Shown: positions 1 to 20,351 of the stretch, piece by piece | Position numbering within the stretch: position 1 is the stretch's first letter | How the letters are laid out: every line of letters begins with the position of its first letter | Origin: Horticoccus luteus | Lineage (GTDB): Bacteria; Verrucomicrobiota; Verrucomicrobiia; Opitutales; Opitutaceae | Assembly: GCF_019464535.1 (NCBI RefSeq) | Contig: NZ_CP080507.1 | Span: forward strand, 330,001 to 362,000 | Length of the DNA: 32,000 bases | Reading direction: 5' to 3' | Position numbers and translations under genes: made by a program | The notes under the pieces: model-generated | What the model saw: the letters and a program-made list of their open reading frames with translations, nothing else | What the model was told of the DNA's origin: nothing | Databases searched by the model: none

Positions 1-507
1 CATGGCTTTGATCGAGGTGGAGACGAAGACTCCGAGGCTTTTCAGCAGGAAGCGCACGGAGTTGATGAGGTTGACACGGCTGCGCACAAGGGCCTCGCGG
101 ACTTTGAGCCGCACGAGGGCGCGTTGCGTGTCCTCGCTGCGGTGGCGGACCGGGCTGAGCAGCTGCGGGTCGGCGCGGCCCAGGCGCGCGAGCATCCGCG
201 CGTCCTCGCGGTCGGACTTGGTCTGGCTTTGCGAGATGGCGCGCAGCTTGCGGGCGTTGGCGACGATGACGGGGTGGCCGAGTGTGGTGACGAGACGCGA
301 GATCCACGGGCTGTGCGTGCCGGTCTCCATCACGATGGTCGCGCCCGGGTAGCGGGCGCTGAACGCGGTCAGCACTTCGCGGGTGTTGACGATCACTTCC
401 TCGGCGAGGATCTCGCCCGAGGCATCGAGGACGCACGCGTGGTGGCGGCGGTCCCCGAGGTCCAAGCCAACGGTTAGTTTTTCAACAGGAGGGGTTTTGG
501 TTTTCAT
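1..507 (-). CDS. IS110-family (DEDD/RuvC-like) transposase, N-terminal part; gene runs off left edge
   Basis: Own translation of the minus strand from ATG at 507-505: MKTKTPPVEKLTVGLDLGDRRHHACVLDASGEILAEEVIVNTREVLTAFSARYPGATIVMETGTHSPWI... The GLDLGD..CVLD and VMETGTH motifs are typical of the IS110/IS1111 N-terminal domain. The ORF is absent from the supplied track because it has no stop inside the window. Confidence 0.75.
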   Translation of the reverse strand, partial: MKTKTPPVEKLTVGLDLGDRRHHACVLDASGEILAEEVIVNTREVLTAFSARYPGATIVMETGTHSPWISRLVTTLGHPVIVANARKLRAISQSQTKSDREDARMLARLGRADPQLLSPVRHRSEDTQRALVRLKVREALVRSRVNLINSVRFLLKSLGVFVSTSIKAM

Positions 508-545
508 ACGGCGGGAGATTATACACCCGCCTTCTCATCCCTACT

Positions 546-559
546 GGTTGAACCAAGCC
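546..559. repeat. Left inverted repeat of module A, GGTTGAACCAAGCC
   Basis: Its reverse complement matches 2970-2982 (GGCTTGTTCAACC) at 13 of 14 positions. It lies 3 bp inside the left repeat boundary. Confidence 0.7.
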
Positions 560-654
560 GCTGCGCGGCGGGGGTGAGCGGGTGTATATAGTGCGGGGCG
601 GGGCACGAGCGGAAGGATGGGCGGGAGGGCGGTGGCTGGCAAGGCTGCGGGTCT

Positions 655-1620
655 ATGCCCAAATCAAAATCGACGGGAAGAGAGTCCACGCACGCGTCCA
701 CGCTGCGGGGTGGCGCCAGGAAGATCGCGGCACCGGATCCGGAGTCGGTGCAGCGTTTCGCGGAGACGATGCGGCTGCGTTCGCTGGCGGCAGCGACGCA
801 GGCCGAGTATCTGCGGTTTGTCCGCAAGTTGGCGACGCGCCACGGGGGCGATCCGGCCGCGCTCGATGAGGCCGCGGTCCGCGCGCATCTGCTGCGGTTG
901 AAGGACGAACACCACTACTCGCCCTCGTCGATGCGAACCGCGGTGGCGGCGATGCGGGCCTACTTCGGCCTGCACCTCGGGCGCGACTGGAAGCTGTTCG
1001 ATCTGGTGCGTTCGCCCTCGGCGCAAAAGCTGCCGACGGTGCTCACGCGCGCAGAGGTGGCGCGGCTGTTCGCGGTGGTGCGCGAGTTGCGTTTCCGCAC
1101 ACTGCTGCGGTTGATCTACGCGTGCGGATTGCGCATCGGCGAGGCGGTCAACCTGGAGGTGCGCGATCTGCGCGAAGCGGGTCGCGTGCATATCCGCGAG
1201 GCGAAGGGCAACAAGGAGCGCTACGTGCCGCTGCCGGAGGCGATGTTGCACGAGTTGCGCGCGTTCTGGCGGACGCACCGGCATCCGCGGTGGATTTTCC
1301 CGGGGGTCGGCCGCGGCTGGCGCGAGCAACCGGCGCGCGCGGCGCAACTGGCCGCCGCCGTCGAGCCGCTGGGCGTGGGCTCGGTGCAGCATTGCCTGCG
1401 GCTGGCGCGGGCCGAGGCGCGGCTGCCGGCGGGCACGGTGGTGCATACGCTGCGGCATTCGTATGCGACGCATCTGCTCGAGGAGGGCGTGTCGATCCGG
1501 CTGATCTCGGCGTATCTGGGGCACGCTTCGCTGGAGACGACGCTGATCTATACGCATCTGACGGCGGTCAACGAGAGCCACGCTCGCGCGGCGGTCGCGC
1601 GGTTGCTCGAACCACGCTGA
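655..1620 (+). CDS. Tyrosine recombinase / phage-integrase-family protein (321 aa)
   Basis: ATG-started ORF. Catalytic-type motifs are present: ACGLRIGEA (Arg), [10 protein letters not shown] (Lys), [15 protein letters not shown] (HxxR), [15 protein letters not shown] (His..Tyr). An N-terminal SAM-like core-binding pattern is also present. Confidence 0.9.
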
Positions 1621-1623
1621 CCG

Positions 1624-2703
1624 GTGCCGGTCCTCGCCGACTGGCTGGCGCGCGTCCGCGTGCCGGAGCGTTGCGCGCCGCGGGCGCGGCGCGCGCTCGC
1701 AGCGATCCGCCGCTGCCGCACGCCCGCCTTGGGCGGGCATGTGTATCGCTGCACGGATTGCGCGGGCACGGACTTCGCGTATCACAGCTGCCACCACCGC
1801 GCGTGTCCGCGCTGCGGCGGCGAGCGCACCGCGGCGTGGACGGCGCAGCAGGAGGCGCGGCTGCTGCCGGTGCCGTATTTTTTGGTGACGTTCACCGTGC
1901 CGGAGGAACTGCGCGCGGTCTTCGCCGCCGAGCCGGCGTTGATGCACGACCGGCTCTTCCGCGAGAGCGCGGCGACGTTGCAACAAGTCGCGGCGGAGCG
2001 GCGGTTGCTCGGTGCGGAACTCGGCTTCGTCGGCGTGCTGCACACCTGGGGCCGGCAGCTCCAGCATCATCCGCACGTGCATTATATCGTGCCCGGCGGC
2101 GGGCTCAGCCCCGACGGCAAAAAATGGTTGAACGCGCGGCAACGCGACTGGCTGCTGCCGGTGGCGAAGCTGGCGGCGGTGTTTCGCGGGCGGATGGAGG
2201 CGGTGCTGCGCGCGAGCGCTACGGCGCGGCACGCTTCGATTCCGGCCGGCACGTGGCGGAGCCGTTGGGTCGTGCATTGCCAGTCGGCCGGCAGGGGCGA
2301 GGCGGTCGTGCGCTATCTCGCGCGCTACGTCAGCCGCACGGCGATCAGCGACGAGCGCCTCGTCGCCGCCGACGACGAGCGCGTGGTGTTTAACTATACC
2401 GATGCGAAGACCCAGCAGCGGCGGCAGTGCACGCTCGGCGCGGAAGAGTTCCTGCGGCGGTATTTGCAGCACGTGCCGCCGGCCGGCCAGCATCGCGTGC
2501 GTTACTTCGGCTGGTTGCACCCGGCGGCGCACGCCCGCCGGATGACGGTGGAGACGCTGCTGCAAAAGCCGATCGTGCTCGCGGCGCCGCCGCCGGAGGC
2601 GCCGCGCTGGCACTTGCGTTGTCCGCACTGCGAACGGTTCACGCTCGTGCGCGTGGGCACGCTGCCGCGGCAGGCGCGCGCGCCGCCCCTTTGCCAGCGA
2701 TGA
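1624..2703 (+). CDS. IS91-family transposase (Zn-binding N-terminus + Y2 HUH rolling-circle domain, 359 aa)
   Basis: GTG start lies 3 nt after the recombinase stop. The Cys/His cluster CTDCAG..HSCHHRACPRCG marks the transposase zinc-binding domain. HHPHVHYIVPGGG is an HUH motif and VRYLARYVSR is a YxxxY motif. Confidence 0.9.
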   Translation: MPVLADWLARVRVPERCAPRARRALAAIRRCRTPALGGHVYRCTDCAGTDFAYHSCHHRACPRCGGERTAAWTAQQEARLLPVPYFLVTFTVPEELRAVFAAEPALMHDRLFRESAATLQQVAAERRLLGAELGFVGVLHTWGRQLQHHPHVHYIVPGGGLSPDGKKWLNARQRDWLLPVAKLAAVFRGRMEAVLRASATARHASIPAGTWRSRWVVHCQSAGRGEAVVRYLARYVSRTAISDERLVAADDERVVFNYTDAKTQQRRQCTLGAEEFLRRYLQHVPPAGQHRVRYFGWLHPAAHARRMTVETLLQKPIVLAAPPPEAPRWHLRCPHCERFTLVRVGTLPRQARAPPLCQR

Positions 2704-2969
2704 GTATAAAGATCAGGGACCAACTTATTATATTATTGCGACTCGCTCCCCGTGTCGCCGGCGGAAGCCTTGGTCGCGACGGACGCAAGACGGCTCGCGA
2801 GCCCGGTGACGGGCGGCGGACACCCTCTCGGCGGGCGAAAACGGACGCCGCCGGCACGTGCGCCCGCGACCGGCGAAGGATGCCGCCGTCCGGCGCTCCG
2901 CCCATCGGCGGTGGGCGGCCACTACAAAACGCATAAGCGGCGGTCGGAACCGCGGACGCCTTCGAAACG

Positions 2970-2982
2970 GGCTTGTTCAACC
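2970..2982. repeat. Right inverted repeat of module A, GGCTTGTTCAACC
   Basis: Partner of 546-559. It lies 41 bp inside the right repeat boundary, so placement is asymmetric relative to the left end. Confidence 0.7.
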
Positions 2983-2990
2983 CGCGTCCC

Positions 2991-3010
2991 GCTGCGCGCT
3001 ACGGCGCAGC
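2991..3010. repeat. Perfect 7-bp stem / 6-nt loop hairpin GCTGCGC-GCTACG-GCGCAGC in the distal right end of module A
   Basis: Direct inspection. The hairpin is identical in module B at 5830-5849. Confidence 0.8.
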
Positions 3011-3023
3011 AGAACGCTCAGAG

Positions 3024-3314
3024 TTAGCCCTTTGGTTCATTTTCGATTTTCATCCGAAAATACAAGCGACGCGTGAACGATACGATTGCATCGAAGAAGA
3101 GTCCGACAACCAAACATTCAGTGGCGAGCAACAAGATAACGACTGCAGCATTCATGTCGTGCGGATTCCCGCTCACCGCGATGCCTGCTTCGATAGGAAG
3201 AATGACAGGATACTGATACCAATGAATCGTCGGACTATTCTTGGGCACGACGGCCGCACAATAACCGAAGAACACAAGAGCGCCGGCTATGACAGTGAGG
3301 ATGTGCCTCGTCAT
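3024..3314 (-). CDS. Hypothetical small membrane protein (about 96 aa, two predicted TM helices) in a low-GC islet
   Basis: Internal ATG at 3314 of track ORF 3024-3395; the longer form would start inside module B. Hydrophobic stretches are ILTVIAGALVFFGYCAAVV and AAVVILLLATECLVVGLFF. Local GC is about 47% against about 66% in the surroundings. The TAA stop is exactly adjacent to the module A boundary. Confidence 0.4.
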   Translation of the reverse strand: MTRHILTVIAGALVFFGYCAAVVPKNSPTIHWYQYPVILPIEAGIAVSGNPHDMNAAVVILLLATECLVVGLFFDAIVSFTRRLYFRMKIENEPKG

Positions 3315-3348
3315 TCTGGAGCTCGTTTTTTGGCTAACGTTTGAGATC

Positions 3349-3375
3349 AGCCACGGGCGCTTGGGCCCGTTGGCT
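3349..3375. repeat. Hairpin with 10-bp stem and one extrahelical T (AGCCACGGGC / GCCCG-T-TGGCT)
   Basis: Direct base-pair check: 3349-3358 pairs with 3365-3375, T3370 is bulged, and the loop is 3359-3364. It sits between the left end of module B and the small ORF start. Confidence 0.6.
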
Positions 3376-3493
3376 GTAGCGACTGGTTGAACCAAGCCGC
3401 TGCGCGGCGGGGGTGGGCGGGTGTATATAGTGCGGGGCGGGGCACGGGCGGAAGGATGGGCGGGAGGGCGGTGGCTGGCAAGGCTGCGGGTCT

Positions 3494-4459
3494 ATGCCCA
3501 AATCAAAATCGACGGGAAGAGAGTCCACGCACGCGTCCACGCTCCGGGGTGGCGCCAGGAAGATCGCCGCGCCCGATCCGGAGTCGGTGCAGCGTTTCGC
3601 GGAGACGATGCGGCTGCGTTCGCTGGCGGCGGCGACGCAGGCCGAGTATCTGCGGTTTGTCCGCCAGTTGGCGGCGCGCTGCGGCGGCGATCCGGCCGCG
3701 CTCGATGAGGCCGCGGTCCGCGCGCATCTGCTGCGGTTGAAGGACGAACACCACTACTCGCCTTCGTCGATGCGAACCGCAGTGGCGGCGATGCGGGCCT
3801 ACTTCGGCGTGCACCTCGGGCGCGACTGGAAGCTGTTCGATCTGGTGCGTTCGCCCTCGGCGCAAAAGCTGCCGACGGTGCTCACGCGCGCAGAGGTGGC
3901 GCGGCTGTTCGCGGTGGTGCGGGTGCCGCGGTTCCGCACACTGCTGCGGTTGATCTACGCGTGCGGATTGCGCATCGGCGAGGCGGTCAACCTGGAGGTG
4001 CGCGATCTGCGCGAAGCGGGTCGCGTGCATATCCGCGAGGCGAAGGGCAACAAGGAGCGCTACGTGCCGCTGCCGGAGGCGATGTTGCACGAGTTGCGCG
4101 CGTTCTGGCGGACGCACCGGCATCCGCGGTGGATTTTCCCGGGGGTCGGCCGCGGCTGGCGCGAGCAACCGGCGCGCGGGGCGCACCTGGCCGCCGCCGT
4201 CGAGCCGCTGGGCGTGGGCTCGGTGCAGCATTGCCTGCGGCTGGCGCGGACCGAGGCGCGGCTGCCGGCGGGCACGGTGGTGCATACGCTGCGGCATTCG
4301 TATGCGACGCATCTGCTCGAGGAGGGCGTGTCGATCCGGCTGATCTCGGCGTATCTGGGGCACGCTTCGCTGGAGACGACGTTGATCTATACGCATCTGA
4401 CGGCGGTCAACGAGAGCCACGCCCGCGCGGCGGTCGCGCGGTTGCTCGAACCACGCTGA
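3494..4459 (+). CDS. Tyrosine recombinase (copy B, 321 aa)
   Basis: About 9 amino-acid differences from 655-1620. All catalytic motifs are retained. Confidence 0.9.
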
Positions 4460-4462
4460 CCG

Positions 4463-5542
4463 GTGTCGGTGCTCGCCGACTGGCTGGCGCGCGCCCGCGT
4501 GCCGGAGCATTGCGCGCCGCGGGCGCGGCGCGCGCTCGCAGCGATCCGCTGCTGCCGCACGCCCGCCTTGGGCGGGCACGTGTATCGCTGCACGGAGTGC
4601 GCGGGCACGGACTTCGCGTATCACAGTTGTCACCATCGCGCTTGCCCGCGCTGCGGCGGCGAGCGCACCGCGGCGTGGACGGAGCGGCAGGAGGCGCGGC
4701 TGCTGCCGGTGCCGTATTTCCTGGTGACGTTCACCGTGCCGCAGGAACTGCGCGCGGTCTTCGCCGCCGAGCCGGCGTTGATGCACGACCGGCTCTTCCG
4801 CGAGAGCGCGGCGACGTTGCAACAAGTCGCGGCGGAGCGGCGGTTGCTCGGTGCGGAACTCGGCTTCGTCGGCGTGCTGCACACCTGGGGCCGGCAGCTC
4901 CAGCATCATCCGCACGTGCATTATATCGTGCCCGGCGGCGGGCTCAGCGCCGACGGCAAAAAATGGGTGAACGCGCGGCAACGCGACTGGCTGCTGCCGG
5001 TGGCGAAGCTGGCGGCAGTGTTTCGCGGGCGGATGGAGGCGGTGCTGCGCGCGAGCGCTCCGGCGCGGCACGCTTCGATTCCGGCCGGCACGTGGCGGAG
5101 CCGTTGGGTCGTGCACTGCCAGCCGGCCGGCAGCGGCGAGGCGGTCGTGCGCTATCTCGCGCGCTACGTCAGCCGCACTGCGATCAGCGACGAGCGCCTC
5201 GTCGTCGCCGATGACGAACGCGTGGTGTTTAACTATACCGACACGAAGACGCAGCAGCGGCGGCAGTGCACGCTCGGCGCGGAAGAGTTCCTGCGGCGGT
5301 ATTTGCAGCACGTGCCGCCGGCCGGCCAGCATCGCGTGCGTTACTTCGGCTGGCTGCACCCGGCGGCGCACGCCCGCCGGATGACGGTGGAGACGCTGCT
5401 GCAAAAGCCGATCGTGCTCGCGGCGCCGCCGCCGGAGGCGCCGCGCTGGCACTTGCGCTGCCCGCACTGCGAACGGTTCACGCTCGTGCGCGTGGGCACG
5501 CTGCCGCGGCAGGCGCGCGCGCCGCCCCTTTGCCAGCGATGA
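4463..5542 (+). CDS. IS91-family transposase (copy B, 359 aa)
   Basis: About 15 amino-acid differences from 1624-2703. Zn-binding, HUH and YxxxY motifs are retained. Confidence 0.9.
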   Translation: MSVLADWLARARVPEHCAPRARRALAAIRCCRTPALGGHVYRCTECAGTDFAYHSCHHRACPRCGGERTAAWTERQEARLLPVPYFLVTFTVPQELRAVFAAEPALMHDRLFRESAATLQQVAAERRLLGAELGFVGVLHTWGRQLQHHPHVHYIVPGGGLSADGKKWVNARQRDWLLPVAKLAAVFRGRMEAVLRASAPARHASIPAGTWRSRWVVHCQPAGSGEAVVRYLARYVSRTAISDERLVVADDERVVFNYTDTKTQQRRQCTLGAEEFLRRYLQHVPPAGQHRVRYFGWLHPAAHARRMTVETLLQKPIVLAAPPPEAPRWHLRCPHCERFTLVRVGTLPRQARAPPLCQR

Positions 5543-5837
5543 GTATAAAGATCAGGGACCAACTTATTATATTATTGCGGCCCGCGCCCCGTGCCGCCGG
5601 CGGCAGCCTTGGCCGCGACCGACGCAAGACGGCTCGCGCCCCCGGTGACGGGTGGCGGACTCCCTCTCGGCGGGCGAAAACGGACGCTACCGGCACGTGC
5701 GCCCGCGACCGGCGAAGGATGCCGCCGTCCGGCGCTCCGCCCATCGGCGGTCGGAGGCCACTACAAAACGCATAAGCGGCGGACGGAACCGCGGACGCCT
5801 TCGAAACGGGCTTGTTCAACCCGCGTCCCGCTGCGCG

Positions 5838-6110
5838 CTACGGCGCAGCAGAACGCTCAGAGATCGGCTCTTTCTGGGACGCGCGCAATAGAACGACGCG
5901 CTTTTCATCGGTCGCCGAAAGGCGGCCATAATCTACGTCGATCATGATCCCACGACAGGAACAACGGGCACTTTCTTTCGGGTGCGATTCGAGCACCTCG
6001 CCGCACGAGGGACACTGATAGTAAAGGTCCGCACCGGTAGGCCATCCCTTCGAGCAATCAAAGGGCACGACTTTACTGGCGAACCGGGAGTTGAACTCAG
6101 AAGCCGTCAT
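5838..6110 (-). CDS. Hypothetical small protein (90 aa) with Cys-rich zinc-ribbon-like pattern
   Basis: ATG start at 6110. The pattern CPSCGEVLESHPKESARCSC is present. Local GC is about 53%. The last 8 codons and the TAG stop lie inside the distal hairpin segment of module B. Confidence 0.45.
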   Translation of the reverse strand: MTASEFNSRFASKVVPFDCSKGWPTGADLYYQCPSCGEVLESHPKESARCSCRGIMIDVDYGRLSATDEKRVVLLRASQKEPISERSAAP

Positions 6111-6216
6111 TTCTTCCGCCGATCAGTGTTATTCGCCCATACTCAGTGTGGCAATGCCAGAACTGAACGAGAGCGGGGGTTGCAGTTGAGGTGGGGAACG
6201 GAAACTCGGTTAGCCG

Positions 6217-7692
6217 TTGTGTCGTCGTGGTTTGGTTTCATGCGACGGCGGTCGGTCGGCGGCGAAACCTTGGGAATCGGATTGCTCGGGGCCGCGCAAA
6301 AGCCACACTGGCAGTATGGCTTTAGCAGGCGAGCGCACAGAGCAAAATCTGGACGAAATCGTGTCATTTCCGGAGTGGCGCGAAGTGTTGAACGGGGCGA
6401 GCGCATGGTCGGCGGAAGTGAAGCAGGCGCATGTCAGGGCAATTTTAGGGTTGTTGCGAGCTTGCAAATCCACGGGCCGGCCGCTGTCGGCGGGTTTCAT
6501 CCGCTGGCATCTGGCGCGTGCTGGTTTGACGGAGAACGCGCGGCGGGCCGAGCGCGCGGCGTTCGCCTGGCTCTTCAAGGCGGCCAGAGCGGCGGGCAAG
6601 ACGCGCCCGGCGGCGCGCGGGTTTGGGGAGCCCGAGGTCGGGGCGCAACGGCCGGCGGATAACCCGCGGCGGTCGGGGCCGGGAGCGGGGGCGGGAGCGA
6701 GGCCGGCCGTGCCGCCGCTGGCGGCGGCGGATCAGGGCGGAGCGGAGTGGGAGCGCGCGTTGATCACGGCCATCCGGCGCAAGGGATTTTTGTGGCGCAC
6801 GGAGCAGACGTATCGGGCATGGGCGGCGCGGTTCGCGCGGTTCCTGGCGCCGCGCTCGCCCGAGGCGGCCTCCGGGGACGATGTGGCGGCGTTTCTCTCC
6901 GCGCTGGCCGTCGAGCAGCGCGCAGCGCCGTCCACGCAGAAGCAGGCGCTCAATGCGCTGGTGTTCTTCATGCAGGAAGCGTTGCGGATGGATCTGGGTG
7001 AAATGGATTTTCGGCGCGCGCGCGCTCGCGAGAGAATACCGACCGTGTTGAGCAAGGCGGAGGTGCGGCAGGTGCTGGAGCAACTGCCGGGCGGCTACCG
7101 ACTGATGGCGGAGGTGATGTATGGGAGCGGGCTGCGGTTGATGGAACTGCTGCGGCTGCGCGTGCACCACCTGGATCTGGCGCGCGGGCAATTGAACGTT
7201 TACGGCGGGAAAGGCGACAAGGACCGGCTGACGGTGCTGCCGGAATCGCTGCGGGAAAAACTGGAGGCTCATCTGGCCCGACTGCGGGAGATTTTCGCGC
7301 AGGACCGGGCGGCGGACGCGCCGGGAGTGTGGTTGCCGGAAGGGCTGGCCCGGAAATATCCCAAGGCGGGGGTGACGTGGGAGTGGCAGTGGTTGTGGCC
7401 GTCGCGCGAATTCATGCAGGACCCGGAGACGGGGCGGCGGCGGCGACATCATATCCTCGACGGGACGTTCCAGAATGCGGTGCGCAAGGCGGCGGGCGCG
7501 GCGGGGATGACGAAACGCGTGACGCCGCATGTGCTGCGGCACTCGTTTGCGACGCATCTGCTGGAGGCGGGCACCGATATCCGGACGGTGCAGGAACTAC
7601 TGGGCCACCAGAGCGTGGAGACGACGCAGATCTATACGCATGTGATGCAGAAGCCGGGGCTGGGCGTGCGGAGTCCGCTGGATGCGGGGTGA
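6217..7692 (+). CDS. intI: Integron-type integrase (IntI family) with long N-terminal extension; start uncertain (TTG 6217, ATG 6316 or GTG 6709)
   Basis: The C-terminal 320 aa align by eye to IntI1, including the IntI-specific insertion. Compare LPEGLARKYPKAGVTWEWQWLWPSREFMQDPETGRRRRHHILDGTFQNAVRKAAGAAGMTKRVTPHVLRHSFATHLL with IntI1 [70 protein letters not shown]. This is followed by DIRTVQELLGHQSVETTQIYTHV..GVRSPLD. Confidence 0.85.
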   Translation: MCRRGLVSCDGGRSAAKPWESDCSGPRKSHTGSMALAGERTEQNLDEIVSFPEWREVLNGASAWSAEVKQAHVRAILGLLRACKSTGRPLSAGFIRWHLARAGLTENARRAERAAFAWLFKAARAAGKTRPAARGFGEPEVGAQRPADNPRRSGPGAGAGARPAVPPLAAADQGGAEWERALITAIRRKGFLWRTEQTYRAWAARFARFLAPRSPEAASGDDVAAFLSALAVEQRAAPSTQKQALNALVFFMQEALRMDLGEMDFRRARARERIPTVLSKAEVRQVLEQLPGGYRLMAEVMYGSGLRLMELLRLRVHHLDLARGQLNVYGGKGDKDRLTVLPESLREKLEAHLARLREIFAQDRAADAPGVWLPEGLARKYPKAGVTWEWQWLWPSREFMQDPETGRRRRHHILDGTFQNAVRKAAGAAGMTKRVTPHVLRHSFATHLLEAGTDIRTVQELLGHQSVETTQIYTHVMQKPGLGVRSPLDAG

Positions 7693-7708
7693 AGGGGTGC
7701 GGGCGGGC

Positions 7709-7796
7709 GGACGGCGGCGGAGGACGGACGGCGGACGGCGGAGGACGGACGGCGGAGGACGGACGGCGGACGGCGGAGGACGGAGGACGGAGGAGG
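7709..7796. repeat. Degenerate heptanucleotide tandem repeat (GRCGGAS, about 12-13 units), G-rich on + strand
   Basis: Direct inspection of GGACGGC GGCGGAG GACGGAC GGCGGAC GGCGGAG ... It begins 17 bp after the intI stop. Confidence 0.8.
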
Positions 7797-7827
7797 GAAA
7801 CCTGAAGGAGCAGAGGGGGGCGCGAAA

Positions 7828-7859
7828 GGATGCCGGGTGAGGGCACCCGGCCCACAGGG
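7828..7859. repeat. REP-like unit GGATG(C/T)CGGGTGAGGGCACCCGGCCCACAGGG containing a CCGGGTG-AGGG-CACCCGG hairpin
   Basis: A 32-bp direct repeat with 7984-8015, one mismatch. Related units occur at 10901-10917 and 10947-10963. Confidence 0.8.
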
Positions 7860-7983
7860 ATGAGGTGAAGCGCGGAGGCGTTCCGCAACGGGACGAGCGG
7901 GCGGATTAGGCGATCGTTCTCGTTATCTTAATCTTTCTCGGGTTGGCGAGCGGAAGGGCGAGAGGGCGGAGAACACTGCGGTC

Positions 7984-8015
7984 GGATGTCGGGTGAGGGC
8001 ACCCGGCCCACAGGG
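7984..8015. repeat. REP-like unit, second direct copy
   Basis: See 7828-7859. Confidence 0.8.
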
Positions 8016-8037
8016 CGGGACGGACGGGCGCGAGAAC

Positions 8038-8061
8038 GATTACGATTATGATTACGATTAC
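8038..8061. repeat. Hexanucleotide tandem repeat GATTAC x4 (one unit GATTAT)
   Basis: Direct inspection. It is part of the low-GC CGAGAACGATTACG... repeat family. Confidence 0.8.
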
Positions 8062-8091
8062 GAAAATGGGGGAAATTTTGGTGGAGTCCTC

Positions 8092-9570
8092 TTACGCGGA
8101 GAGGTGGTGGCTGAGTTCTGATACGGGCATCGGTTCGAGTTGATGGGGGGCGTTGAATAGAGTGGCGAGGAGCGTGGCCTTCTCCGAGCTGTAGTGAGCA
8201 GTGAAGGCGGCGGCGGCTTTTTGCTGAAGGAGCGGGATGCCGTCTTTCCTCCGGCGGCGGTGGCCGATCGGGAAGTGCACTTCGATGCGGTCGGTGGCGG
8301 TGCCGTCGGTGAAGAAGATTTGGACGGCGTTGGCGATGGAGCGTTGCCCGGCGTCGAGGTAGTCGCGGCTGTAGGTTTTCTCTTCGCGCACAACCATCTT
8401 CGCGCGGAGGGCATCGATGCGGGGATCGGCGGCGATTTTGTCTTCGTAATGTTCGGCGGTGAGGTCGCCGAACAGGAGGCCGATGGCGGTCATATATTGC
8501 AGGCAGTGATCGCGGTCGGCGGGATTGTGGAGCGGGCCGGTTTTATCGATGATGCGGATGGCGGACTCGTGGGTGGTGAGTTCGATGCGGGCGATGTCGG
8601 CAAGGCGGTCGCGGACGAGCGGGTGGAGTTGCACGGCGCATTCGACGGCGGTCTGGGCGTGGAATTCGGCGGGGAAGGAGATTTTGAAGAGGACATTTTC
8701 CATCACATAGCTGCCGAGCGGGCGGGCGAGTTTGACGGGTTGGCCGCGGAAGGAGACATCTTGGAAGCCCCAGGTTTTGGCGGTGAGGACGGAGGGGTAG
8801 CCCATCTCGCCAGTGAGGGCGATGAGGGCGAGGCGGACGGCGCGGCTGGTGGCATCGCCGGCGGCCCAGGATTTACGGGAGCCGGTGTTGGGCGCGTGGC
8901 GGTAGGTGCGGAGGGCGGAGCCATCGAGCCACGCGTGGGAGAGGGCGTTGACGATTTGGTCGCGGGTGCCGCCGAGCATGGCGGTGGTGACGGCGGTGGA
9001 GGCGATGCGGACGAGGAGGACGTGATCGAGGCCGACGCGGTTGAAGGAGTTTTCGAGGGCGAGGATGCCTTGGATTTCGTGGGCCTTGATCATCGCGACG
9101 AGGAGGTCGCGGACGGTGAGGGAGGAAGGACGAATGGCGGATGACGAATTGAAGGCGCGGACGGGCGTGCCGGCGGCGGCGTTGCGCGAGAGCCAGTCGG
9201 CGGTGGCGAGAAGGGCGCCGAGGTTGTCGGAGGGATGACCCCATTCGGCGGCGAGCCAGGTGTCGTTGAAATCGAGCCAGCGGACGAGGGTGCCGATGTT
9301 GAAGGCGGCTTGCACAGGATCGAGCTCGTAGGGCGTGCCGGGGACGCGGGCGCCGTTGGCGATGGTGGTGCCGGGGACGACGGGGCCGAGGAGTTTCGTG
9401 CAGGCGGGATATTTCAGCGCCATGATGCCGCAGGCGAGGGTGTCGAGGAGGCACCAGCGGGCGGTGTCGAGCGCCTCGGCGGAGGGCGCGTTGTAGTGAA
9501 GCGCGTAGTCGGCGAGGGTGACCAGGAGGTCGTCGGGCGGCGGGCGGAGGTTGGAAATGGGAGAGGACAT
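8092..9570 (-). CDS. prpD: 2-methylcitrate dehydratase (MmgE/PrpD family)
   Basis: About 492 aa from the internal ATG at 9570 (MSSPISNL..). Length and sequence are typical of PrpD. The longer track ORF (to 9651, TTG) would start inside an intergenic palindrome. Confidence 0.85.
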
Positions 9571-9698: not shown

Positions 9699-10872
9699 AT
9701 AGGCGTTGGTCGAGCGGGACGAAGGGGCGCGGGGCGGGGCCGGTGTAGTGCGCGCTGGGGCGGATGATTTTGCCGTCCTGGCGTTGCTCGATCACGTGGG
9801 CGCCCCAGCCAGCGGTGCGGGCGACGACGAAGAGCGGCGTGAACATGGGCGTGGGTATGCCCATGAGGTCGTAGGCGACCGCGCTATACCAATCGAGGTT
9901 GGGAAACATTTTCTTGAGTTCCCACATGACGTGTTCGATGCGCTCGGCGATGGCGAAGCGTTCGGGGCGGCCGCCGGCGGTGCAGAGTTCGCGCGCGATG
10001 TCTTTGATGATGGCGTTGCGCGGATCGCTGATCGTGTAAACGGGATGGCCGAAGCCGATGACGATTTCCTTGCGGGCGACGCGAGCGCGAAGGTCGGCCT
10101 CGGCTTCGTCGGCGGTGCGGTAGCGGAGTTGGATTTCGTGGGCGACTTCGTTGGCGCCGCCGTGTTTGGGGCCGCGGAGGGCGCCGATGGCGCCGGTGAG
10201 GCACGCATACATGCCGGAGCCGGTGCCGGCGATCACGCGCGCGGTGAACGTGGAGGCGTTGAACTCGTGTTCGGCGTAAAGAATGAGGGAGCGATCGAGG
10301 GCGCGCACATGCGCGGGATCGGGGGTGCGTTGATGGAGCAGGCGGAGGAAGTGCGCGGCGACGGAGGGTTCGGCGGTTTCGACGGCGATGCGTTGGCCGG
10401 TGGTCGAAAAATGATGCCAGTAGAGCAGCAGACCGGGCAGGCAGGCGATGAGGCGGTCGATGATGGCGCGGGCGGCGGGTGCATCGGTCGGGCCGGCGCT
10501 GCCGGGGGCGGAGGGCTCGGGGTTGAGTGCGCCGAGGGCGGATACGCCGGTGCGCAGGACGTCCATCGGATGGGTGGCGGCGGGGAGTTGTTCGAGGATG
10601 GCGAGGACGGGCGCGGGGAGGCTGCGGAGCGAGGCGAGGCGCGCGTGGTAGGCGGCAAGTTCGGCGCGATCGGGCAGGTGTTCGTGGATGAGGAGGTGCG
10701 CGACTTCCTCGTAGGTGGTCTCGCGCGCGAGGTCGGCGATGTCGTAGCCGCGGTAATGCAGGTCGTTGCCGGAATGACCGACGGTGCAGAGAGCGGTGTT
10801 GCCGGCGACGATGCCGGAGAGGGCGACGGACTTCTTGGGTTTGAAAGCGGGAGGTATATCGGAGGTGCTCAT
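9697..10872 (-). CDS. prpC: 2-methylcitrate synthase / citrate synthase family
   Basis: 391 aa from the ATG at 10872 ([20 protein letters not shown]..). Citrate-synthase motifs GFGHPVYT and ..HEFNAST.. are present. It lies between prpB and prpD. Confidence 0.85.
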
Positions 10873-10900
10873 GGCAAGGGGGGCGGAACTGGAGAACGCT

Positions 10901-10963
10901 GTGGGTGAAGTGCCCTCTCGCCGAACCTTGTGCACTCTGGCGGAGTGAGGGCACCCCGCCCAC
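10901..10963. repeat. Inverted pair of REP-like units (GTGGGTGAAGTGCCCTC ... GAGGGCACCCCGCCCAC)
   Basis: Arms 10901-10917 and 10947-10963 are reverse complements except for the central 4 nt. They lie in the prpB-prpC intercistronic gap. Confidence 0.7.
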
Positions 10964-11012
10964 AACTTCACGTTGGGTGGTTCTAACGGAGCGGCGCGGT
11001 GGGGGAGAGTGT

Positions 11013-11906
11013 TCAGGGTTTCGCGGGCGGGGTGTAGCCGAGAACGGAATAGAGTTCGGCGCGGGGTTGCATGCGGTCGAGGGTGGCGCGTTGGGTGCCG
11101 TCGCGTTGGAGAGCGGCGTAAACATCGCGCGAGGCGGCGGCGGCGGCGCGGGCGGCGCTGAGAGGATAAAGCGCGAGCGCGATGCCGGCGGAGCGAAGCT
11201 CGTCGAGGGTGAAGAGGGGCGTCTGGCCGAACTCGGTGAGGTTGGCGAGGACGGGGGCGCGGACGGCGGCGGTGAACGCGCGGTAGTCGTCGAGGGTGCG
11301 CAATGCTTCGGCGAAAATCATGTCGGCGCCGGCGGCGAGGTAGCTTTGCGCGCGGGCGATGGCGGCGGGGAGGCCTTCGACCGCGGCGGCATCGGTGCGC
11401 GCCATGACGACGAAGGTGGGATCAGGCTTGCCGGTGAGGGCGGCGCGGACGCGGGCGCACATTTCGTCGGACGACACGAGGTGTTTGCCGGGCAGGTGGC
11501 CGCAGAGTTTGGCGGGGACTTGATCTTCGAGATGAACGGCGGCGACTCCGGCGGCGGCGAGGGCGCGGACGGTGGCCGCGGGGTCGTCCCAACCGGTGTC
11601 GATATCAACGAGGAGCGGGAGGTCGACGCGGCGCGTGATGCGGCGGGCATCGGTGAGGACGTCGTCGAGGGTGGTGGTGCCGGTGTCGGGGAGGCCGCAG
11701 GAGTAATTGGCGACGCCGGCGCCGGAGAGGTAGAGGGCGCGGAAGCCGGCGCGTTGGGCGAGGAGCGCGGCGTAGGCGTTGAGGGTGCCGACGACTTGCA
11801 GCGGTGACGCGGCGGCGAGGGCGGAGCGGAATTTGGCGCCGGGAGTCGGGGAGGAGCTCACGGGCGCGAAGGTGTCACGGGAGCGGGGTGGTTGTCGAGG
11901 GGGCAC
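11013..11906 (-). CDS. prpB: Methylisocitrate lyase (PEP mutase/isocitrate lyase superfamily)
   Basis: Motifs include ..LYLSGAGVA.., [29 protein letters not shown]. Start is uncertain (GTG 11906 or GTG 11861). Confidence 0.85.
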
Positions 11907-12080: not shown

Positions 12081-13067
12081 TTACCAGGCGTAGGCTTCGG
12101 GGGCGGGGCCGCCGGGGCCGGGGAAGATTTCGTCGAGTTGGCGGAGCGTGTCGGGCGAGAGCGTGACGTCGAGGGCGCGGAGAGCGTCGGTGAGTTGCGC
12201 CATCGTGCGGGGGCCGATGATGGGGGCGGTGACGGCGGGTTGCGCGAGGAGCCAGGCGAGGGCGACGTCGGCCGGCGGGAGGTCGAGCGTGCGGCAGAGA
12301 GTTTCGTAGCGTTCCAGTTGGGGGCGCCTGGCCTCGATTTGTTTTTGGAAATCGGGGGCGGCGCGGCGGCCGGAGGCGGCTTTGGCGAGCGCGCCGCCGA
12401 GGAGACCGCCACCGAGGGGACTCCATGGGATGAGGCCGACGCCGAAGTGCGTGCAGGCGGGAATCACTTCGAGTTCGAGGGTGCGGGCGGTGAGGTTGTA
12501 GAGGCTTTGTTCGCTGACGAGGCGCGGTTGCTGGCGCAGGTCGGCGGTGGTGCAGGCGGTCGCGAGATCCCAGCCGGCGAAATTGCTGGAGCCGACGTAG
12601 TAGATTTTGCCTTGGCGCTGGAGCGTTTGCATGGCGCCGAGCCATTCGTCGATCGGGCAGGCGCGGTCGACGTGGTGCATTTGATAGAGATCGAGGTGAT
12701 CGGTCTGGAGGCGGCGGAGGCTGGCTTCGCATTCGCGCATGATTTTGCGCGCGCTGAGGCCGCGATCGAGATTCGGGTCGGGGCGTGCGGGGCGGTCCAT
12801 CATGCCGAAGACTTTGGTGGCGAGGACGACGAAGTCGCGGCGGCCGCCGCCTTGGGCGAGCCAGCGGCCGATGATGTTTTCGGTGACGCCTTCGCCGCGC
12901 TGGCGGCCGTAAACATCGGCGGTGTCGAAGAAATTAACGCCCTGCTCGACGGCGCGGTCCATGATGGCAAACGCGTCGGCTTCGCTCGTGAAGGGGCCGA
13001 AGTTCATGGTGCCGAGGCAGAGACGGGAGACGCGGAGGCCGGAGCGGCCGAGGTGGGTGTAGTGCAT
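12081..13067 (-). CDS. Aldo/keto reductase family oxidoreductase (328 aa)
   Basis: The N-terminus MHYTHLGRSGLRVSRLCLGTMNFG and overall AKR pattern (..FFDTADVYG..) are present. Confidence 0.85.
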   Translation of the reverse strand: MHYTHLGRSGLRVSRLCLGTMNFGPFTSEADAFAIMDRAVEQGVNFFDTADVYGRQRGEGVTENIIGRWLAQGGGRRDFVVLATKVFGMMDRPARPDPNLDRGLSARKIMRECEASLRRLQTDHLDLYQMHHVDRACPIDEWLGAMQTLQRQGKIYYVGSSNFAGWDLATACTTADLRQQPRLVSEQSLYNLTARTLELEVIPACTHFGVGLIPWSPLGGGLLGGALAKAASGRRAAPDFQKQIEARRPQLERYETLCRTLDLPPADVALAWLLAQPAVTAPIIGPRTMAQLTDALRALDVTLSPDTLRQLDEIFPGPGGPAPEAYAW

Positions 13068-13288
13068 AAAACGGGGGGGGCGAAAGGGTGGGTGATGCGG
13101 GTGAAGCGCGAACGGCGGCAGGGCGGGGCGGATGGCGCGGGCGCCGGGACGGAATAACCTGTGGTCAAGCGCGAGGGTTTTGCGAACGCGAGGGCGAGAT
13201 CAGCGGCGCGTCGGCCGGGGTTACGACCGGAGGGAAGCGTCGCTGAGAAATGCCGCGCGGGACACGCCGCCGAAATCGGACCGTGGGA

Positions 13289-13350
13289 GATCGTGCGCTT
13301 TTTCTTCGTCGAGTTCGTTCGCGAAAACGAGCGGGAGAAGGAGGACGATC
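13289..13350. repeat. Imperfect palindrome of the GATCGT..CGTTCGCGAAAACG..ACGATC family
   Basis: Ends GATCGT (13289-13294) and ACGATC (13345-13350), with central TTCGCGAA. It lies immediately downstream of the cfa-like stop and resembles 9616-9698. Confidence 0.5.
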
Positions 13351-13359
13351 GTGTGGGGA

Positions 13360-14373
13360 TCAGGCGGGTTTGGTGAAGAGGTAGTGGCTGACGAGCCACT
13401 CTTCGCCGTCGCGGTAGCGCCAGAGTTCGGAGCAGGCCAAATAGAACACGCGCCAGTAGGCCCACCATTTCACGGCGTGTTCGCGGCCGTAGATGTCGAC
13501 GAAGAGCGGGAGAATTTCGTCGCGATGAGCGTCCATGTTTTTCAACCAGTGCTCGGCGGTGCGGTGATAGTGGGTGCCATTGACGCGCCAGTCGGAGAGG
13601 AGGGTGAGATCGCGTTGAAACTGCGGCAGGAGGTCGTGAGCGGGCATTTGTCCGCCCGTGAAAAAGTAGCGACTCATCCAGTCGGAGGCGTCGCGGGCGA
13701 CGAAGTGATACGAGAGGCGGGTGTGGGTGAAGATATGAACGAAGAGGAGGCCGCCGGATTTGAGCCAGCGGGCGATGTGGGCGAGGAGTCGCTCGTAGTT
13801 TTTCAGGTGTTCGAACATCTCGATGGAGACGACGCGGTCGAATTGCGCGGGGGCGATGTCGAAGGCGTTGATATCGCAGGTGAGGATGCGGAGATTGATG
13901 AGGCCGCGTTTGCGCGCTTCGGTGTCGATAAACTCTTTTTGGGGGCGGGAGTTGGAGACGCCGGTGATCTGGGCGCGCGGGAAACGTTGCGCGAGATAGA
14001 GCGAGAGGGAGCCCCAGCCGCAGCCGAGTTCGAGGATGTGCTGGCCGTCGGCGAGGCGGGCGCGTGCGACGTAGAGCGCGAGCATGGCGTCTTCCGCGGC
14101 GGCGAGGGTGGCGTCGGGGCGTTCGTAGAGGCAGCAGGAGTATTTGAGGCGCGGGCCGAGGCAGAAGCGGAAGAACGGCGGCGGGACCTCGTAGTGTTGC
14201 TCGTTGGCGGCGCGGGTGTCTTCGGCGATCGGGCGGGTGCGGAGATCGGCGACGTAAGCGGCGCGGTCGTAATCGGCGGAAGCGGCGCGCAGGCGCTGGC
14301 GGAGCAGGCGGCGGATGCCGAGGCGAAGGAGCCAGTCGGGCAGGAGGTTTTTTTCGAGCAGGCGGTCGATCAT
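13360..14373 (-). CDS. Cyclopropane-fatty-acyl-phospholipid synthase-like SAM-dependent methyltransferase (337 aa)
   Basis: Starts at the internal ATG 14373 (MIDRLLEKNLLPDW..). The SAM motif ILELGCGWGSL is present. The Ser/Pro-rich 132-aa extension of the track ORF overlaps the upstream gene and is rejected. Confidence 0.85.
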   Translation of the reverse strand: MIDRLLEKNLLPDWLLRLGIRRLLRQRLRAASADYDRAAYVADLRTRPIAEDTRAANEQHYEVPPPFFRFCLGPRLKYSCCLYERPDATLAAAEDAMLALYVARARLADGQHILELGCGWGSLSLYLAQRFPRAQITGVSNSRPQKEFIDTEARKRGLINLRILTCDINAFDIAPAQFDRVVSIEMFEHLKNYERLLAHIARWLKSGGLLFVHIFTHTRLSYHFVARDASDWMSRYFFTGGQMPAHDLLPQFQRDLTLLSDWRVNGTHYHRTAEHWLKNMDAHRDEILPLFVDIYGREHAVKWWAYWRVFYLACSELWRYRDGEEWLVSHYLFTKPA

Positions 14374-14392
14374 GCGAAGGAGTGGAAGAGCG

Positions 14393-15190
14393 TTAGCGCG
14401 GGGCGCGGCGCGGAAGCCACGGGATGAACGCCGAAGTGGTTTGCTGATAGCGGTGGTAAGCGTCGCCCTTGGAGCGGAGGGATTGTTGCTCGGCGATCGG
14501 AATGCCCGTGACGCGCAGGAGCAGGTAGAGAATCGCGGCGGGAGCGATGACGGCGAGCCAGCCCCACGGGGCGGCGAGCGCGAAAAGGAAATAGGCGACC
14601 CACACGAGCCATTCGCAAAAATAATTGGGGTGACGGCTGAAGCGCCAGAGGCCGACGTCGCAGACGCGGCCGCGGTGGGAACGGTGGCGTTTGAAGGCGG
14701 CGAGTTGCGCATCGGCGGTGGCTTCGCCGAGGACGGCGAGGAGCCAGAGGGCGGCAGCGACGAATTCAACCGGGTGAAAACGCGGATCGCGGTGGAGAGC
14801 GATCAAGAGGAACGGGACGCCGAGGAGCACGACGGAGGCGGCTTGGAGTTGGAAGAAGCCGGCCATTTTGGGCGCGAAGTTTCCCGCCCAGTCACGGCGA
14901 AGCTGGGCGTAACGGGTGTCTTCGGCGGGATGGTGCCGGGCGATGCGGAGGAGGAGATGCGTGCCGAGGCGCGCGCTCCAGATGACCGCGAGCGCGCCGA
15001 GGAGGAGACGGCGCGGCAGCCAGCCGGGGGCGGCGAACGCGTAGAACGCGACGAGCAGGCCGAAGGCGTAGGACCACGCGATGTCGACGATGCCGTAGTT
15101 GTCGAGGCGACGCGCGAGGAGGTAGAGGCAACCGAACACCACGCACAGGGCCACGAGTGCGGCGAGGGGGAGGAGGAGAGCGGGCGGCAT
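14393..15190 (-). CDS. DUF1295-family membrane protein (steroid-reductase/ICMT-like fold, 265 aa)
   Basis: Starts at the internal ATG 15190 (MPPALLLPLAAL..). It has multiple TM helices and the family motif GLWRFSRHPNYFCEW. Confidence 0.8.
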   Translation of the reverse strand: MPPALLLPLAALVALCVVFGCLYLLARRLDNYGIVDIAWSYAFGLLVAFYAFAAPGWLPRRLLLGALAVIWSARLGTHLLLRIARHHPAEDTRYAQLRRDWAGNFAPKMAGFFQLQAASVVLLGVPFLLIALHRDPRFHPVEFVAAALWLLAVLGEATADAQLAAFKRHRSHRGRVCDVGLWRFSRHPNYFCEWLVWVAYFLFALAAPWGWLAVIAPAAILYLLLRVTGIPIAEQQSLRSKGDAYHRYQQTTSAFIPWLPRRAPR

Positions 15191-15194
15191 GGCG

Positions 15195-15590
15195 TCAGGC
15201 GAGAAAGAGGACCGCGATGCCAGCGGCGGCGAGGAGCGGACCGAGCAGGCCGATGCGGTGGGTGCGGCGCGTGAGCACCTCGGAGAAGGGGGCGGTGCGC
15301 GGGACGGAGCAGAGCTCGGAGAGCGAGAACGCGGCGAGGGCGATGTTGCCGAGGATAAGGATGGCGATGAGCCAAGCGAGGCGGGCGAGCCAGTGGGTGC
15401 GTTTATAAAACGCCCAGACGTAAAACGTGAGAAAACCGAAGAACGCGTCGAAGAGCGTGGCGATGAACCACGGATGGGTGAGGACAGGACGCGGGACGGC
15501 GAACAGGGGACATTGCGCGCCGGCCCAGATCGTGACGGCGAGCATCGCGACGAGGACGGCCACGGCGAGAAGGCGCAGGGTGACAATCAT
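15195..15590 (-). CDS. Small integral membrane protein (131 aa, about 4 TM), unknown function
   Basis: Starts at ATG 15590 (MIVTLRLLAVAVLVAML..). ATGA overlaps the stop of the upstream DUF1365 gene, consistent with translational coupling. Confidence 0.65.
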   Translation of the reverse strand: MIVTLRLLAVAVLVAMLAVTIWAGAQCPLFAVPRPVLTHPWFIATLFDAFFGFLTFYVWAFYKRTHWLARLAWLIAILILGNIALAAFSLSELCSVPRTAPFSEVLTRRTHRIGLLGPLLAAAGIAVLFLA

Positions 15591-16471: not shown

Positions 16472-16488
16472 GGAGTAGCGAGGTGGTG

Positions 16489-17823: not shown

Positions 17824-17939
17824 GTGCGAAAGCGCTCATGCAAATTGCAGGAGACACTGCCATTGTGCCGGGGGTGGACGACCGCGCGAATTGAAACACA
17901 CGAAATACGAAGACTTTAATTCACTTCGAAATGCATCCA

Positions 17940-17951
17940 GACCGCGCGGTC
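17940..17951. promoter_or_regulatory. Perfect 12-bp palindrome GACCGCGCGGTC upstream of the lipid-modification operon (candidate operator)
   Basis: It lies about 120 bp upstream of the start at 17823. A partial copy (ACCGCGCG) is at 17881-17888. The same 10-bp core is at 19453-19462. Confidence 0.4.
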
Positions 17952-18063
17952 GTGACGTAACGGCGGGACGGCGCGGTGGGCGAAGGGGGCTCGGACGACG
18001 CGGGCGAGCGGTGTCCGTGCCGGCGCGCAGCGACACGGACGCGGGCGGCGAAGGGGGAACCGC

Positions 18064-18096
18064 AAAAGCAAAAAAGCCGCGCCGAAGGAGCGCGGC
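18064..18096 (-). terminator. Rho-independent terminator of the desaturase gene
   Basis: On the minus strand, GCCGCGC-tccttcg-GCGCGGC is followed by TTTTTTGCTTTTG. It lies 19 bp after the stop at 18115. Confidence 0.75.
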
Positions 18097-18114
18097 GAGG
18101 AGGGGGAGGCGGCT

Positions 18115-20333: not shown

Positions 20334-20351
20334 CCTTTTCGCCGCCCAGCC

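Follow-up and report, generated by a model that had tools for sequence, protein, structure and literature searches.

Among mobile elements directed at the attC sites of integrons, the IS1111-attC group of insertion sequences (IS) was reportedly described by Tetu and Holmes in 2008 and by Post and Hall in 2009. Some IS1111-type elements, such as ISKpn4 and ISPst6, target attC (PMC11187229), and such elements are well known, as are the group IIC-attC introns (PMC11187229, PMC3001079, PMC11089894). Members of the IS91 family form single-stranded DNA (ssDNA) circles and insert without target duplication, in one orientation and beside a short conserved sequence (PMC5714925). In the literature, the only description found of attC targeting by the IS91 family was a one-sentence note on ISShvi3 from Shewanella, and nothing was found that connects attC with the IS91 subgroup that bears a recombinase gene. 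Here, an integron of Horticoccus luteus (Verrucomicrobiota, Opitutaceae) and the mobile elements inserted in it are analyzed. The 32,000 nucleotides (nt) of its 4.32-Mb chromosome that were studied (NZ_CP080507.1, positions 330,001 to 362,000) are called the window, and coordinates are those of the window unless a locus number precedes them.

The first 8 kb contain, from left to right, a truncated IS110-family gene, a 2.48-kb repeat present twice and each time accompanied by a small open reading frame (ORF) on the minus strand, and then the integron integrase gene intI. Positions 1-7692 very probably represent a complete chromosomal integron of H. luteus in which mobile elements of two types, each specific for attC, have settled. 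As an integron it is ordinary and of a known kind, its integrase gene being labeled 'integron integrase' by NCBI already. The repeated unit, composed of a tyrosine-recombinase gene and an IS91 transposase gene, seems to constitute a new variant within a known IS family, one that is specific for attC. The proteins encoded by intI, by the two recombinase genes and by the two IS91 transposase genes match GenBank QYM79275-79280 exactly. A preliminary description of the window had proposed a two-cassette array on the minus strand, interrupted by recombinase-IS91 modules and an IS110 element, and this proposal is borne out by an attC model and by the arrays of related loci. The features are as follows (the arrow marks a crossover or insertion point).

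1-546, minus strand: partial IS110-family element of the IS1111-attC type, with a DEDD transposase gene from 507 to 1 that crosses the window edge (PF01548, 78 bits)
547-3022 (548-3023 if the crossover is at G↓TT), plus strand: unit copy 1, with a recombinase gene (655-1620) and an IS91 Y2 transposase gene (1624-2703)
3023-3337, minus strand: cassette 2, starting with TTAGCC (3337 to 3332), with ORF96 (3314 to 3024) and an R'' box GGCTAAC (3029 to 3023) that overlaps the stop codon
3332-3392, plus strand (the bottom strand of the site is on the plus strand): attC site, a full-length match to covariance model R1 (53.9 bits, E 5.8e-12)
3386-5861 (3387-5862 if the crossover is at G↓TT), plus strand: unit copy 2, with a recombinase gene (3494-4459), a transposase gene (4463-5542) and a hairpin site (5814-5861)
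5862-6124, minus strand: cassette 1, starting with (G)ATCGGC (6124 to 6118), with ORF90 (6110 to 5838) and an R'' box GCCGATC (5868 to 5862)
6125-6160, minus strand: putative attI region, reading ...GGGCGAATAACACT↓GATCGGC on the cassette strand, with conserved junction homology
6316-7692, plus strand: intI, encoding 458 amino acids from the ATG at 6316 (TIGR02249) and matching exactly QYM79280.1, 'integron integrase [Horticoccus luteus]'

From intI outward along the minus strand, the putative attI is followed by cassette 1 with ORF90, by unit copy 2 and by the distal portion of the cassette 1 attC; then come cassette 2 with ORF96, unit copy 1 and the IS1111-type IS110 element that crosses the window edge.

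Integron integrase and attC sites

The reading frame of intI is open from 6217, and the start given in GenBank is the ATG at 6316. The ORF at 6217-7692 matches TIGR02249 with 382.5 bits (cutoff 265), residues 184-490 being aligned to model positions 7-314 of 315, and it contains the domains Phage_int_SAM_4 and Phage_integrase as well as the insertion that is specific for the IntI subfamily (KYPKAG...WQW...RRRHH), so that the strong family call made in the preliminary description holds. Residues 1-150 (6316-6765) form an N-terminal extension of about 150 amino acids ahead of the SAM-like domain, for which no family match was obtained in Pfam or NCBIfam; homologues of about 450 amino acids with the same extension are common in Opitutaceae genomes and metagenomes. 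The H. luteus genome encodes three integron integrases with 96-97% mutual identity (QYM77846.1, P0002, QYM79280.1), which suggests a recent duplication or mobility of whole integron platforms.

Eighty loci coding for IntI relatives were fetched and numbered from L001 on, and covariance model R1 was built from 124 attC sites of related Opitutaceae integron loci. All 124 sites are located in related IntI loci and, with the exception of L043, lie upstream of intI in the same strand sense as the attC site of the window. In a search of the window with filters off, 3332-3392 was the sole significant match, the next best having an E-value of 0.18. The site at 3332-3392 is a hybrid made up of 48 nt from the distal portion of the cassette 1 attC (3338-3385) and of the TTGAAC supplied by unit copy 2 with its left end. 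Its identity to an uninterrupted attC (L029:8127-8187) is 93%, and as ssDNA it folds with z-scores of -2.6 and -3.1.

Related IntI loci carry their cassette arrays on the 5' side of intI wherever the upstream flank is present, with 17 repeats in L010 (Horticoccus sp.), 14-15 in L038 and 9 in L012. The array site shared by these loci reads GCCYAACGTCAAAGATGAGCCACG...CGTTGGCTCTGGCGCCTTGTTRGGC on the intI strand, and the cassette ORFs of the relatives are on the strand opposite intI, with their stops just ahead of the R'' box. In the sequence of the intI strand, the extra base falls within the 3' half, which identifies this strand as the bottom strand of attC, as in classical integrons. A structure-aware attC match was obtained on the same side and in the same orientation as the arrays of relatives, in agreement with the earlier placement of the array 5' of intI. 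Comparison of related loci for cassette turnover, which had also been proposed, revealed large, entirely different arrays on this 5' side: those of L010, L012, L038, L060, L021 and L016 contain none of the cassettes of the window, except for the ORF90 cassette in L016. Cassettes are thus mobile and vary between genomes, and one of them is found in two.

Cassettes and predicted attI junction

Both minus-strand ORFs reported earlier (3024-3314 and 5838-6110) are present. Their GC content, given as 47-53%, is indeed below that of neighboring genes (67-72%) and amounts to 49.5% for ORF96, whereas the 57.1% of ORF90 is above the range quoted. Cassette 1 (5862-6124) is 94% identical at the DNA level to L016:8864-9126, and the similarity ends exactly at 5862 and 6124. 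L016 belongs to a metagenome-assembled genome (MAG) of Lacunisphaera; its IntI is just 60% identical to that of the window, and the ORF90 cassette occupies a different position in its array. The two ORF90 proteins are 96% identical, with a ratio of nonsynonymous to synonymous substitution rates (dN/dS) of 0.06, indicating that ORF90 is a real gene on a horizontally shared cassette. ORF90 has a weak match to DUF7695 and is not annotated in GenBank, where QYM79279 and QYM79280 are consecutive. Its last 8 codons and stop (5838-5861) lie inside the end of unit copy 2, and the L016 homologue instead reads into its own attC for about 12 codons, so that the insertion has replaced the C-terminal tail of the protein.

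The attC of the L016 cassette continues GCCGATC CAGT CCTCAGAGACAACG...GTTAGGC, and the variant R box GCCGATC/GATCGGC recurs in functional-looking attC sites of L005, L012, L016, L023, L044 and L052. GAT replaces the near-invariant GTT in the window at 5862-5868 and 6118-6124, and in L016 at 8870-8877, 9120-9126 and 9244-9250. As the GATC-type box is also present at the predicted attI junction of the window, it is evidently recombined. The earlier remark that an AAC inverse core is missing beside ORF90 is correct insofar as there is no AAC, but this reflects a recurrent GATC-type R box and not decay. ORF96 codes for a small hydrophobic protein for which no family match was found in Pfam or NCBIfam. 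In both cassettes R'' and R' are complementary, as the cassette rule demands, and in cassette 2 the complementarity is perfect (GGCTAAC versus G+TTAGCC).

The sequence directly on the intI-proximal side of 6124 reads AGTGTTATTCGCCC, and the motif AGTGTTATTCG(C/G)C adjoins the first cassette border in the window (6125-6138), in L016 and in L021. This intI-proximal junction is conserved in L016 (from 9838), L021 (from 9223), L001 (441-475) and L003 (411-450), the last two being 94-95% identical to 6118-6159 of the window. The predicted attI/cassette junction is at 6118-6124, with a GATC variant core, and its homology predicts attI function. As intI is of full length and this junction is conserved, the earlier suggestion that the integron might be degenerate does not apply.

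The heptamer GTTAGCC/GGCTAAC is found exactly where it had been reported (3023-3029, 3332-3338 and 6209-6215). The first occurrence is the R'' box of the ORF96 cassette and the second the R' box with which the same cassette starts, so that their reading as integron boxes stands, whereas the third was rejected as attI: the homologous junction is at 6118-6138, and 6209-6215 has no counterpart in relatives and is attributed to chance. Heptamer statistics were dropped as evidence, being at chance level both for GTTAGCC/GGCTAAC (3 observed and 1.38 expected, with 18 of 100 shuffles reaching 3; the count had been called unremarkable on an estimate of 3-4) and for GTTRRRY overall (39 versus 36 expected).

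Like sedentary chromosomal integrons, which NCBI annotates in Opitutaceae under 'integron integrase', the H. luteus locus has an IntI with the family-specific insertion, intI and cassettes in divergent orientation, attC boxes of the form RYYYAAC...GTTRRRY with an extra base in the L'' arm, and low-GC cassettes without obvious promoters and of unknown functions, one of which is common to two genera. It differs from them by the IntI extension of about 150 amino acids and in that two cassettes are visible, both with an interrupted attC and one with a GATC-type R box.

Anatomy of the IS91/tyrosine-recombinase unit

The 2.48-kb repeat covers 543-3023 and 3382-5862, at an offset of 2839 bp and with about 97% identity between the copies. 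Copy 1 has the left end GTTGAACCAAGCCGCTGCGCGGCG and a right inverted repeat GGCTTGTTCAAC (2969-2981), which is followed by the hairpin site ending in ...CTCAGA. For copy 2, the left junction on the plus strand is ...GGCTGTAGCGACTG G↓TTGAACCAAGCC and the right junction is ...GGCTTGTTCAAC CCGC GTCCC GCTGCGC GCTACG GCGCAGC AGAAC GCTCAGA G↓ATCGGC; the right junction of copy 1 ends in G↓TTAGCC and is otherwise as in copy 2.

The transposase matches NF033538 (IS91) with 367 bits (cutoff 125) as well as PF04986 and PF14319, and the motifs HVH and YLARY in both copies identify it as an HUH/Y2 rolling-circle transposase. For the recombinase, the best NCBIfam model is TIGR02249 with 160 bits, below the cutoff; the protein possesses all catalytic motifs and is 32% identical to IntI, and the IntI insertion is absent from it. 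Both ORF pairs are intact, and the comparison of copies 1 and 2 gives dN/dS values of 0.31 (recombinase) and 0.27 (transposase) at a synonymous divergence (dS) of 0.05-0.07. These ratios of about 0.3, together with a divergence of about 3%, indicate that both genes are maintained and that the copies are not a fresh local duplication. Protein records of H. luteus contain 6 recombinases and 7 IS91 transposases of at least 90% identity, which corresponds to at least 6 units (with proteins among QYM77714-77721 and QYM77849); several of them alternate with single genes, and one is three genes away from another intI.

The last 41 nt of the repeat (2982-3022 and 5821-5861) form an identical hairpin segment into which both small ORFs run, as had been described. 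Its interpretation as the attC of the small ORFs, considered for both strands, was rejected because the segment travels with the unit in more than 20 contexts and reaches just 7 bits with R1. When the two ends of the unit are joined, the sequence GTTCAAC...GTTGAAC results, a perfect 7-bp box around a conserved imperfect hairpin, which folds as ssDNA with -15.3 kcal/mol (z -3.0). Across 20 sites the hairpin is paired in 99.5% of cells, 3 pairs are changed on both sides, and none of 500 shuffles reached the covariation observed. The changes concern the outer pair, which is C-G, G-C or A-T, and one copy with GTTTCGC/GCGAAAC in the main stem.

Insertion of the unit at attC

Scanning of metagenome contigs with 19 nt of the unit hairpin yielded 21 contigs, 17 of them with the full right-end site, and L103-L112 were added by protein-guided look-ups. 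On the plus strand the junctions are ...CTG G↓TTGAAC...unit...CTCAGA G↓TTRGGC. The 21 right ends compared come from the window, MAGs and metagenomes. In 15 of them the next 7-mer is GTTAGGC, GTTCGGC, GATCGGC or GTTAGCC, each complementary to an R'' box, and most of these 15 continue into the 3' end of an ORF on the minus strand; the remaining 6 are followed by GTTGAAC (3), GTTAGCA, ATTAGGC and GATGCTC. In the window, L084, L087, L099, L063, L103, L109 and L110, the sequence that precedes the left end is the distal portion of an attC; the left flank is nearly always ...CTG, and several left flanks are detected by R1 as attC sites that end at the unit. The flanks in L084, when rejoined, closely resemble the intact attC L005:8554-8620, and this comparison with an empty site indicates a precise insertion without target duplication. 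With respect to intI and the cassettes, the unit has the same inverted orientation in the window (both copies), L004, L063, L022 and L109, and L109 repeats the whole architecture of a unit, a cassette, a unit, two small ORFs and IntI. The absence of target duplication (L084/L005), the fixed orientation and the short conserved target (15 of 21 right ends) are those of IS91-family insertions. From these comparisons of junctions, which take in more than 20 independent metagenomic insertions, the unit seems to be an attC-specific element that is inserted at the R'' box, inverted relative to the cassettes and with cassette-like borders.

Derivatives of the unit include a gene-less copy of about 310 nt with both ends (L087), a deleted copy (L099) and hairpin sites that stand alone (L098, L096, L021), and in L092 two ends are joined head to tail (CTCAGA-GTTGAAC). 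Short units of 14 nt, TTGAAC+NCTCAGAG, were observed after right ends in L088 (6459-6474) and L090 (656-671), and in L094, at about 510-530, a right end is followed by a 10-nt duplication of GCTCAGAGAT. The short units in these three contigs could be excision footprints or aberrant joints; none was found away from an IS copy.

Among known systems, the unit resembles the ISAzo26 group of ISfinder, in which a recombinase gene likewise precedes an IS91 transposase gene whose product is about 41% identical to that of the window unit. The inverted repeats of ISAzo26 start, similarly to those of the window unit, with a GTTRRRY-type core, GTTGGAC (GTTGGACT(A/G)AACCGC), and an attC-like end architecture may be general to the recombinase-bearing IS91 subgroup. 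In contrast to the window units, the copy of ISAzo26 that was examined is carried by a plasmid, where it is surrounded by other IS elements and outside integrons, and the window lineage is distinguished from the ISAzo26 group by a distinct and highly conserved 55-nt end site. An imperfect hairpin of about 85 nt was observed just outside the right repeat of this ISAzo26 copy (L102, NC_006824.1, 95.1-98.0 kb).

Compared with integron gene cassettes, the unit likewise has G↓TTRRRY at its borders, the six bases with which it opens are complementary to the box at the start of its terminal hairpin site, and the joint in L092 has the form of a joined tandem or circle junction; in contrast to cassettes, the unit is inverted, is placed at R'' and not R', carries mobility genes of its own and has longer inverted repeats. 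Group IIC-attC introns (PMC3001079) resemble it as mobile elements specialized for attC, using the bottom or top folded strand in one orientation. However, they are retroelements with a ribozyme and a reverse transcriptase, and an Rfam search of 1-8200 with E up to 1 found no family, and hence no such RNA.

IS1111-type element

The existence of an IS110-family element, claimed earlier, was confirmed at 1-507 on the minus strand by the match to PF01548 (DEDD_Tnp_IS110). Its end at 546 abuts ...GTTCAAC CAGT↓, with CAGT on the top strand to the left of unit copy 1, and a homologue in L037 occupies the same relative position in an ordinary attC, GCCCAAC CAGT↓AGGAATGAGAAGG. The non-coding region upstream of the transposase gene comprises 39 nt, as in IS1111-type elements. 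Judged from the visible end, the element thus combines a DEDD transposase with a fixed insertion point and orientation (R''+CAGT↓ in the window and L037), which are the properties of the IS1111-attC group. The segment 480-553 folds well (z -3.8), and the other half of the cassette 2 attC was suspected there, but this reading was rejected because the transposase gene starts at 507 and the L037 homologue identifies the segment as the end of the element.

The window therefore shows two types of insertion in attC arms. The IS110 element is fixed 4 nt inside R'', as in L037, and the IS91/recombinase unit is in concept likewise an attC-specific insertion element. It differs from the IS1111-attC group in having an HUH/Y2 transposase and a tyrosine recombinase and no DEDD transposase with guide RNA, and in using the R'' boundary itself as the insertion point, where its G↓TT junctions are like those of cassettes.

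Possible mechanism of insertion

In the mechanism proposed, rolling-circle replication by the IS91 transposase would yield a circular copy of TTGAAC...CTCAGAG, probably as ssDNA. At G↓TT, the hairpin site of this circle would then recombine with a resident attC whose top strand (R'' arm) is folded, in a reaction catalyzed most likely by the unit's own IntI-related recombinase. Since the borders are at G↓TT and yet at the R'' arm, this would be the mirror image of the bottom-strand reaction of IntI. We consider the unit's own recombinase the most likely catalyst, with about even confidence; the HUH transposase acting alone is a less probable one. The host IntI is an improbable catalyst because of the mirror-image reaction, the failure of the attC model to recognize the hairpin and the differing spacing between box and stem. 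The composite reading of the unit as an undescribed integron parasite, a mirror-image cassette mimic in which an HUH-generated circle and the unit's own recombinase act on the top strand of attC, is put forward tentatively, at somewhat less than even confidence.

Several points weigh against these interpretations of the locus and the unit. The rest of the attC of cassette 2 has been displaced by unit copy 1 and the IS110 element and lies beyond the window edge. A sigma-70 consensus scan of 2900-6500 for the cassette promoter Pc gave no site, the scan being uncalibrated for Verrucomicrobiota and restricted to this promoter type. The left flanks in L088 and L085 are not obviously attC. Most right ends were retrieved with a fixed 19-nt pattern, so that ascertainment precluded any variation of the main stem in most of its 5' arm, and independent covariation comes only from the outer pair and one flanking copy. 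Moreover, given its 7 bits with R1, the unit hairpin is attC-like in terms of geometry only.

The strongest alternative, which we regard as less likely but as a serious rival, is that the HUH/Y2 transposase acts alone, with nicks at the left end and 3' to the hairpin of the right end and with folded single strands of attC as targets; the recombinase would then just resolve multimers or have another role. The tetranucleotides GTTC/CTTG (GAAC/CAAG) are the classical targets of IS91, IS801 and IS1294, and they are contained in the left terminus GTT-GAAC-CAAG-CC, in agreement with this alternative; in the unit, GAAC-CAAG is located inside the left terminus rather than outside, the flanks being CTG↓G and ↓GTTR or GATC. 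A direct repeat, CCGCTGCGCG, at both ends with hairpin potential on the same strand, the nearly constant left flank ...CTG, and the 14-nt units of L088 and L090, which resemble donor joints with cleavage 3' of GAAC, all fit with a transposase that acts alone, as does the known behavior of the IS91 family (PMC5714925). On the other hand, it does not account for junctions exactly at the G↓TT crossover point of integron-type boxes or for the conservation of a recombinase closest to IntI, and the inverted repeats of 12-13 bp, which are like recombinase-binding arms, are left unexplained.

That the units are ordinary, though inverted, gene cassettes captured and duplicated by the host IntI, with the terminal hairpin as their attC, is considered improbable. 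Their borders at G↓TT of GTTRRRY-type boxes would agree with this idea, and so would the complementarity, in accordance with the cassette rule, between the first six bases TTGAAC and the R''-like GTTCAAC at the other end. However, a gene cassette would be expected to have a recognized terminal attC and the orientation of the array, and the unit, with a hairpin of 7 bits as compared to 54-99 bits for real sites and an inverted insertion at R'' that mirrors the bottom-strand reaction of IntI, has neither. The spacing between R box and stem is 2 and 5 nt, versus 9 and 9 in host attC sites, the terminal inverted repeats of 12-13 bp extend beyond the 7-bp box, the unit carries its own recombinase and transposase, both under purifying selection, and ISAzo26, with the same gene order, is located outside any integron. 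A local segmental duplication by homologous recombination, without independent insertions, would agree with direct repeats at a fixed offset of 2839 bp, but is highly implausible in view of the unrelated segments beside the copies (ORF96 versus ORF90, IS110 flank versus attC flank), the distance of about 3% between them (dS 0.05-0.07, dN/dS about 0.3) and the presence of the unit at equivalent attC positions in many unrelated contigs.

Next to IS1111-attC elements and group IIC-attC introns, the unit would represent a third enzymatic route to attC, and it offers a natural system for learning how strand choice is set on folded single-stranded recombination sites. If the reading as a mirror-image cassette mimic is true, its choice of strand would be the reverse of that made by IntI. 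Its link to attC also suggests a role for the unexplained tyrosine-recombinase gene in the ISAzo26-type subgroup of the IS91 family. Units create hybrid attC sites, which could confuse cassette calling, their direct repeats can delete or shuffle cassettes, and they probably break metagenome assemblies at integrons.

Other features of the locus and its relatives

Many MAG contigs (for example L002, L007, L008, L014, L018, L032, L040, L047) stop 0.1-2 kb upstream of intI, which fits with assembly breaks at repeated attC sites or IS units. L043, also from a MAG, has an IntI match at 10001-11035 and 14 attC sites at 12090-20568 on the minus strand, where they are downstream of this intI fragment and opposite to it in strand. 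No other locus examined shows such a placement, which could be due to an inversion or a second array. In the window, intI is followed on its 3' side by prpD, prpC and prpB. The region between intI and prpD (7682-8030) contains a G-rich tandem repeat of the GGACGG/GGCGGA type, with units of 7, 14 and 21 nt, and a 32-nt palindromic segment in two copies, at 7828-7859 and 7984-8015.

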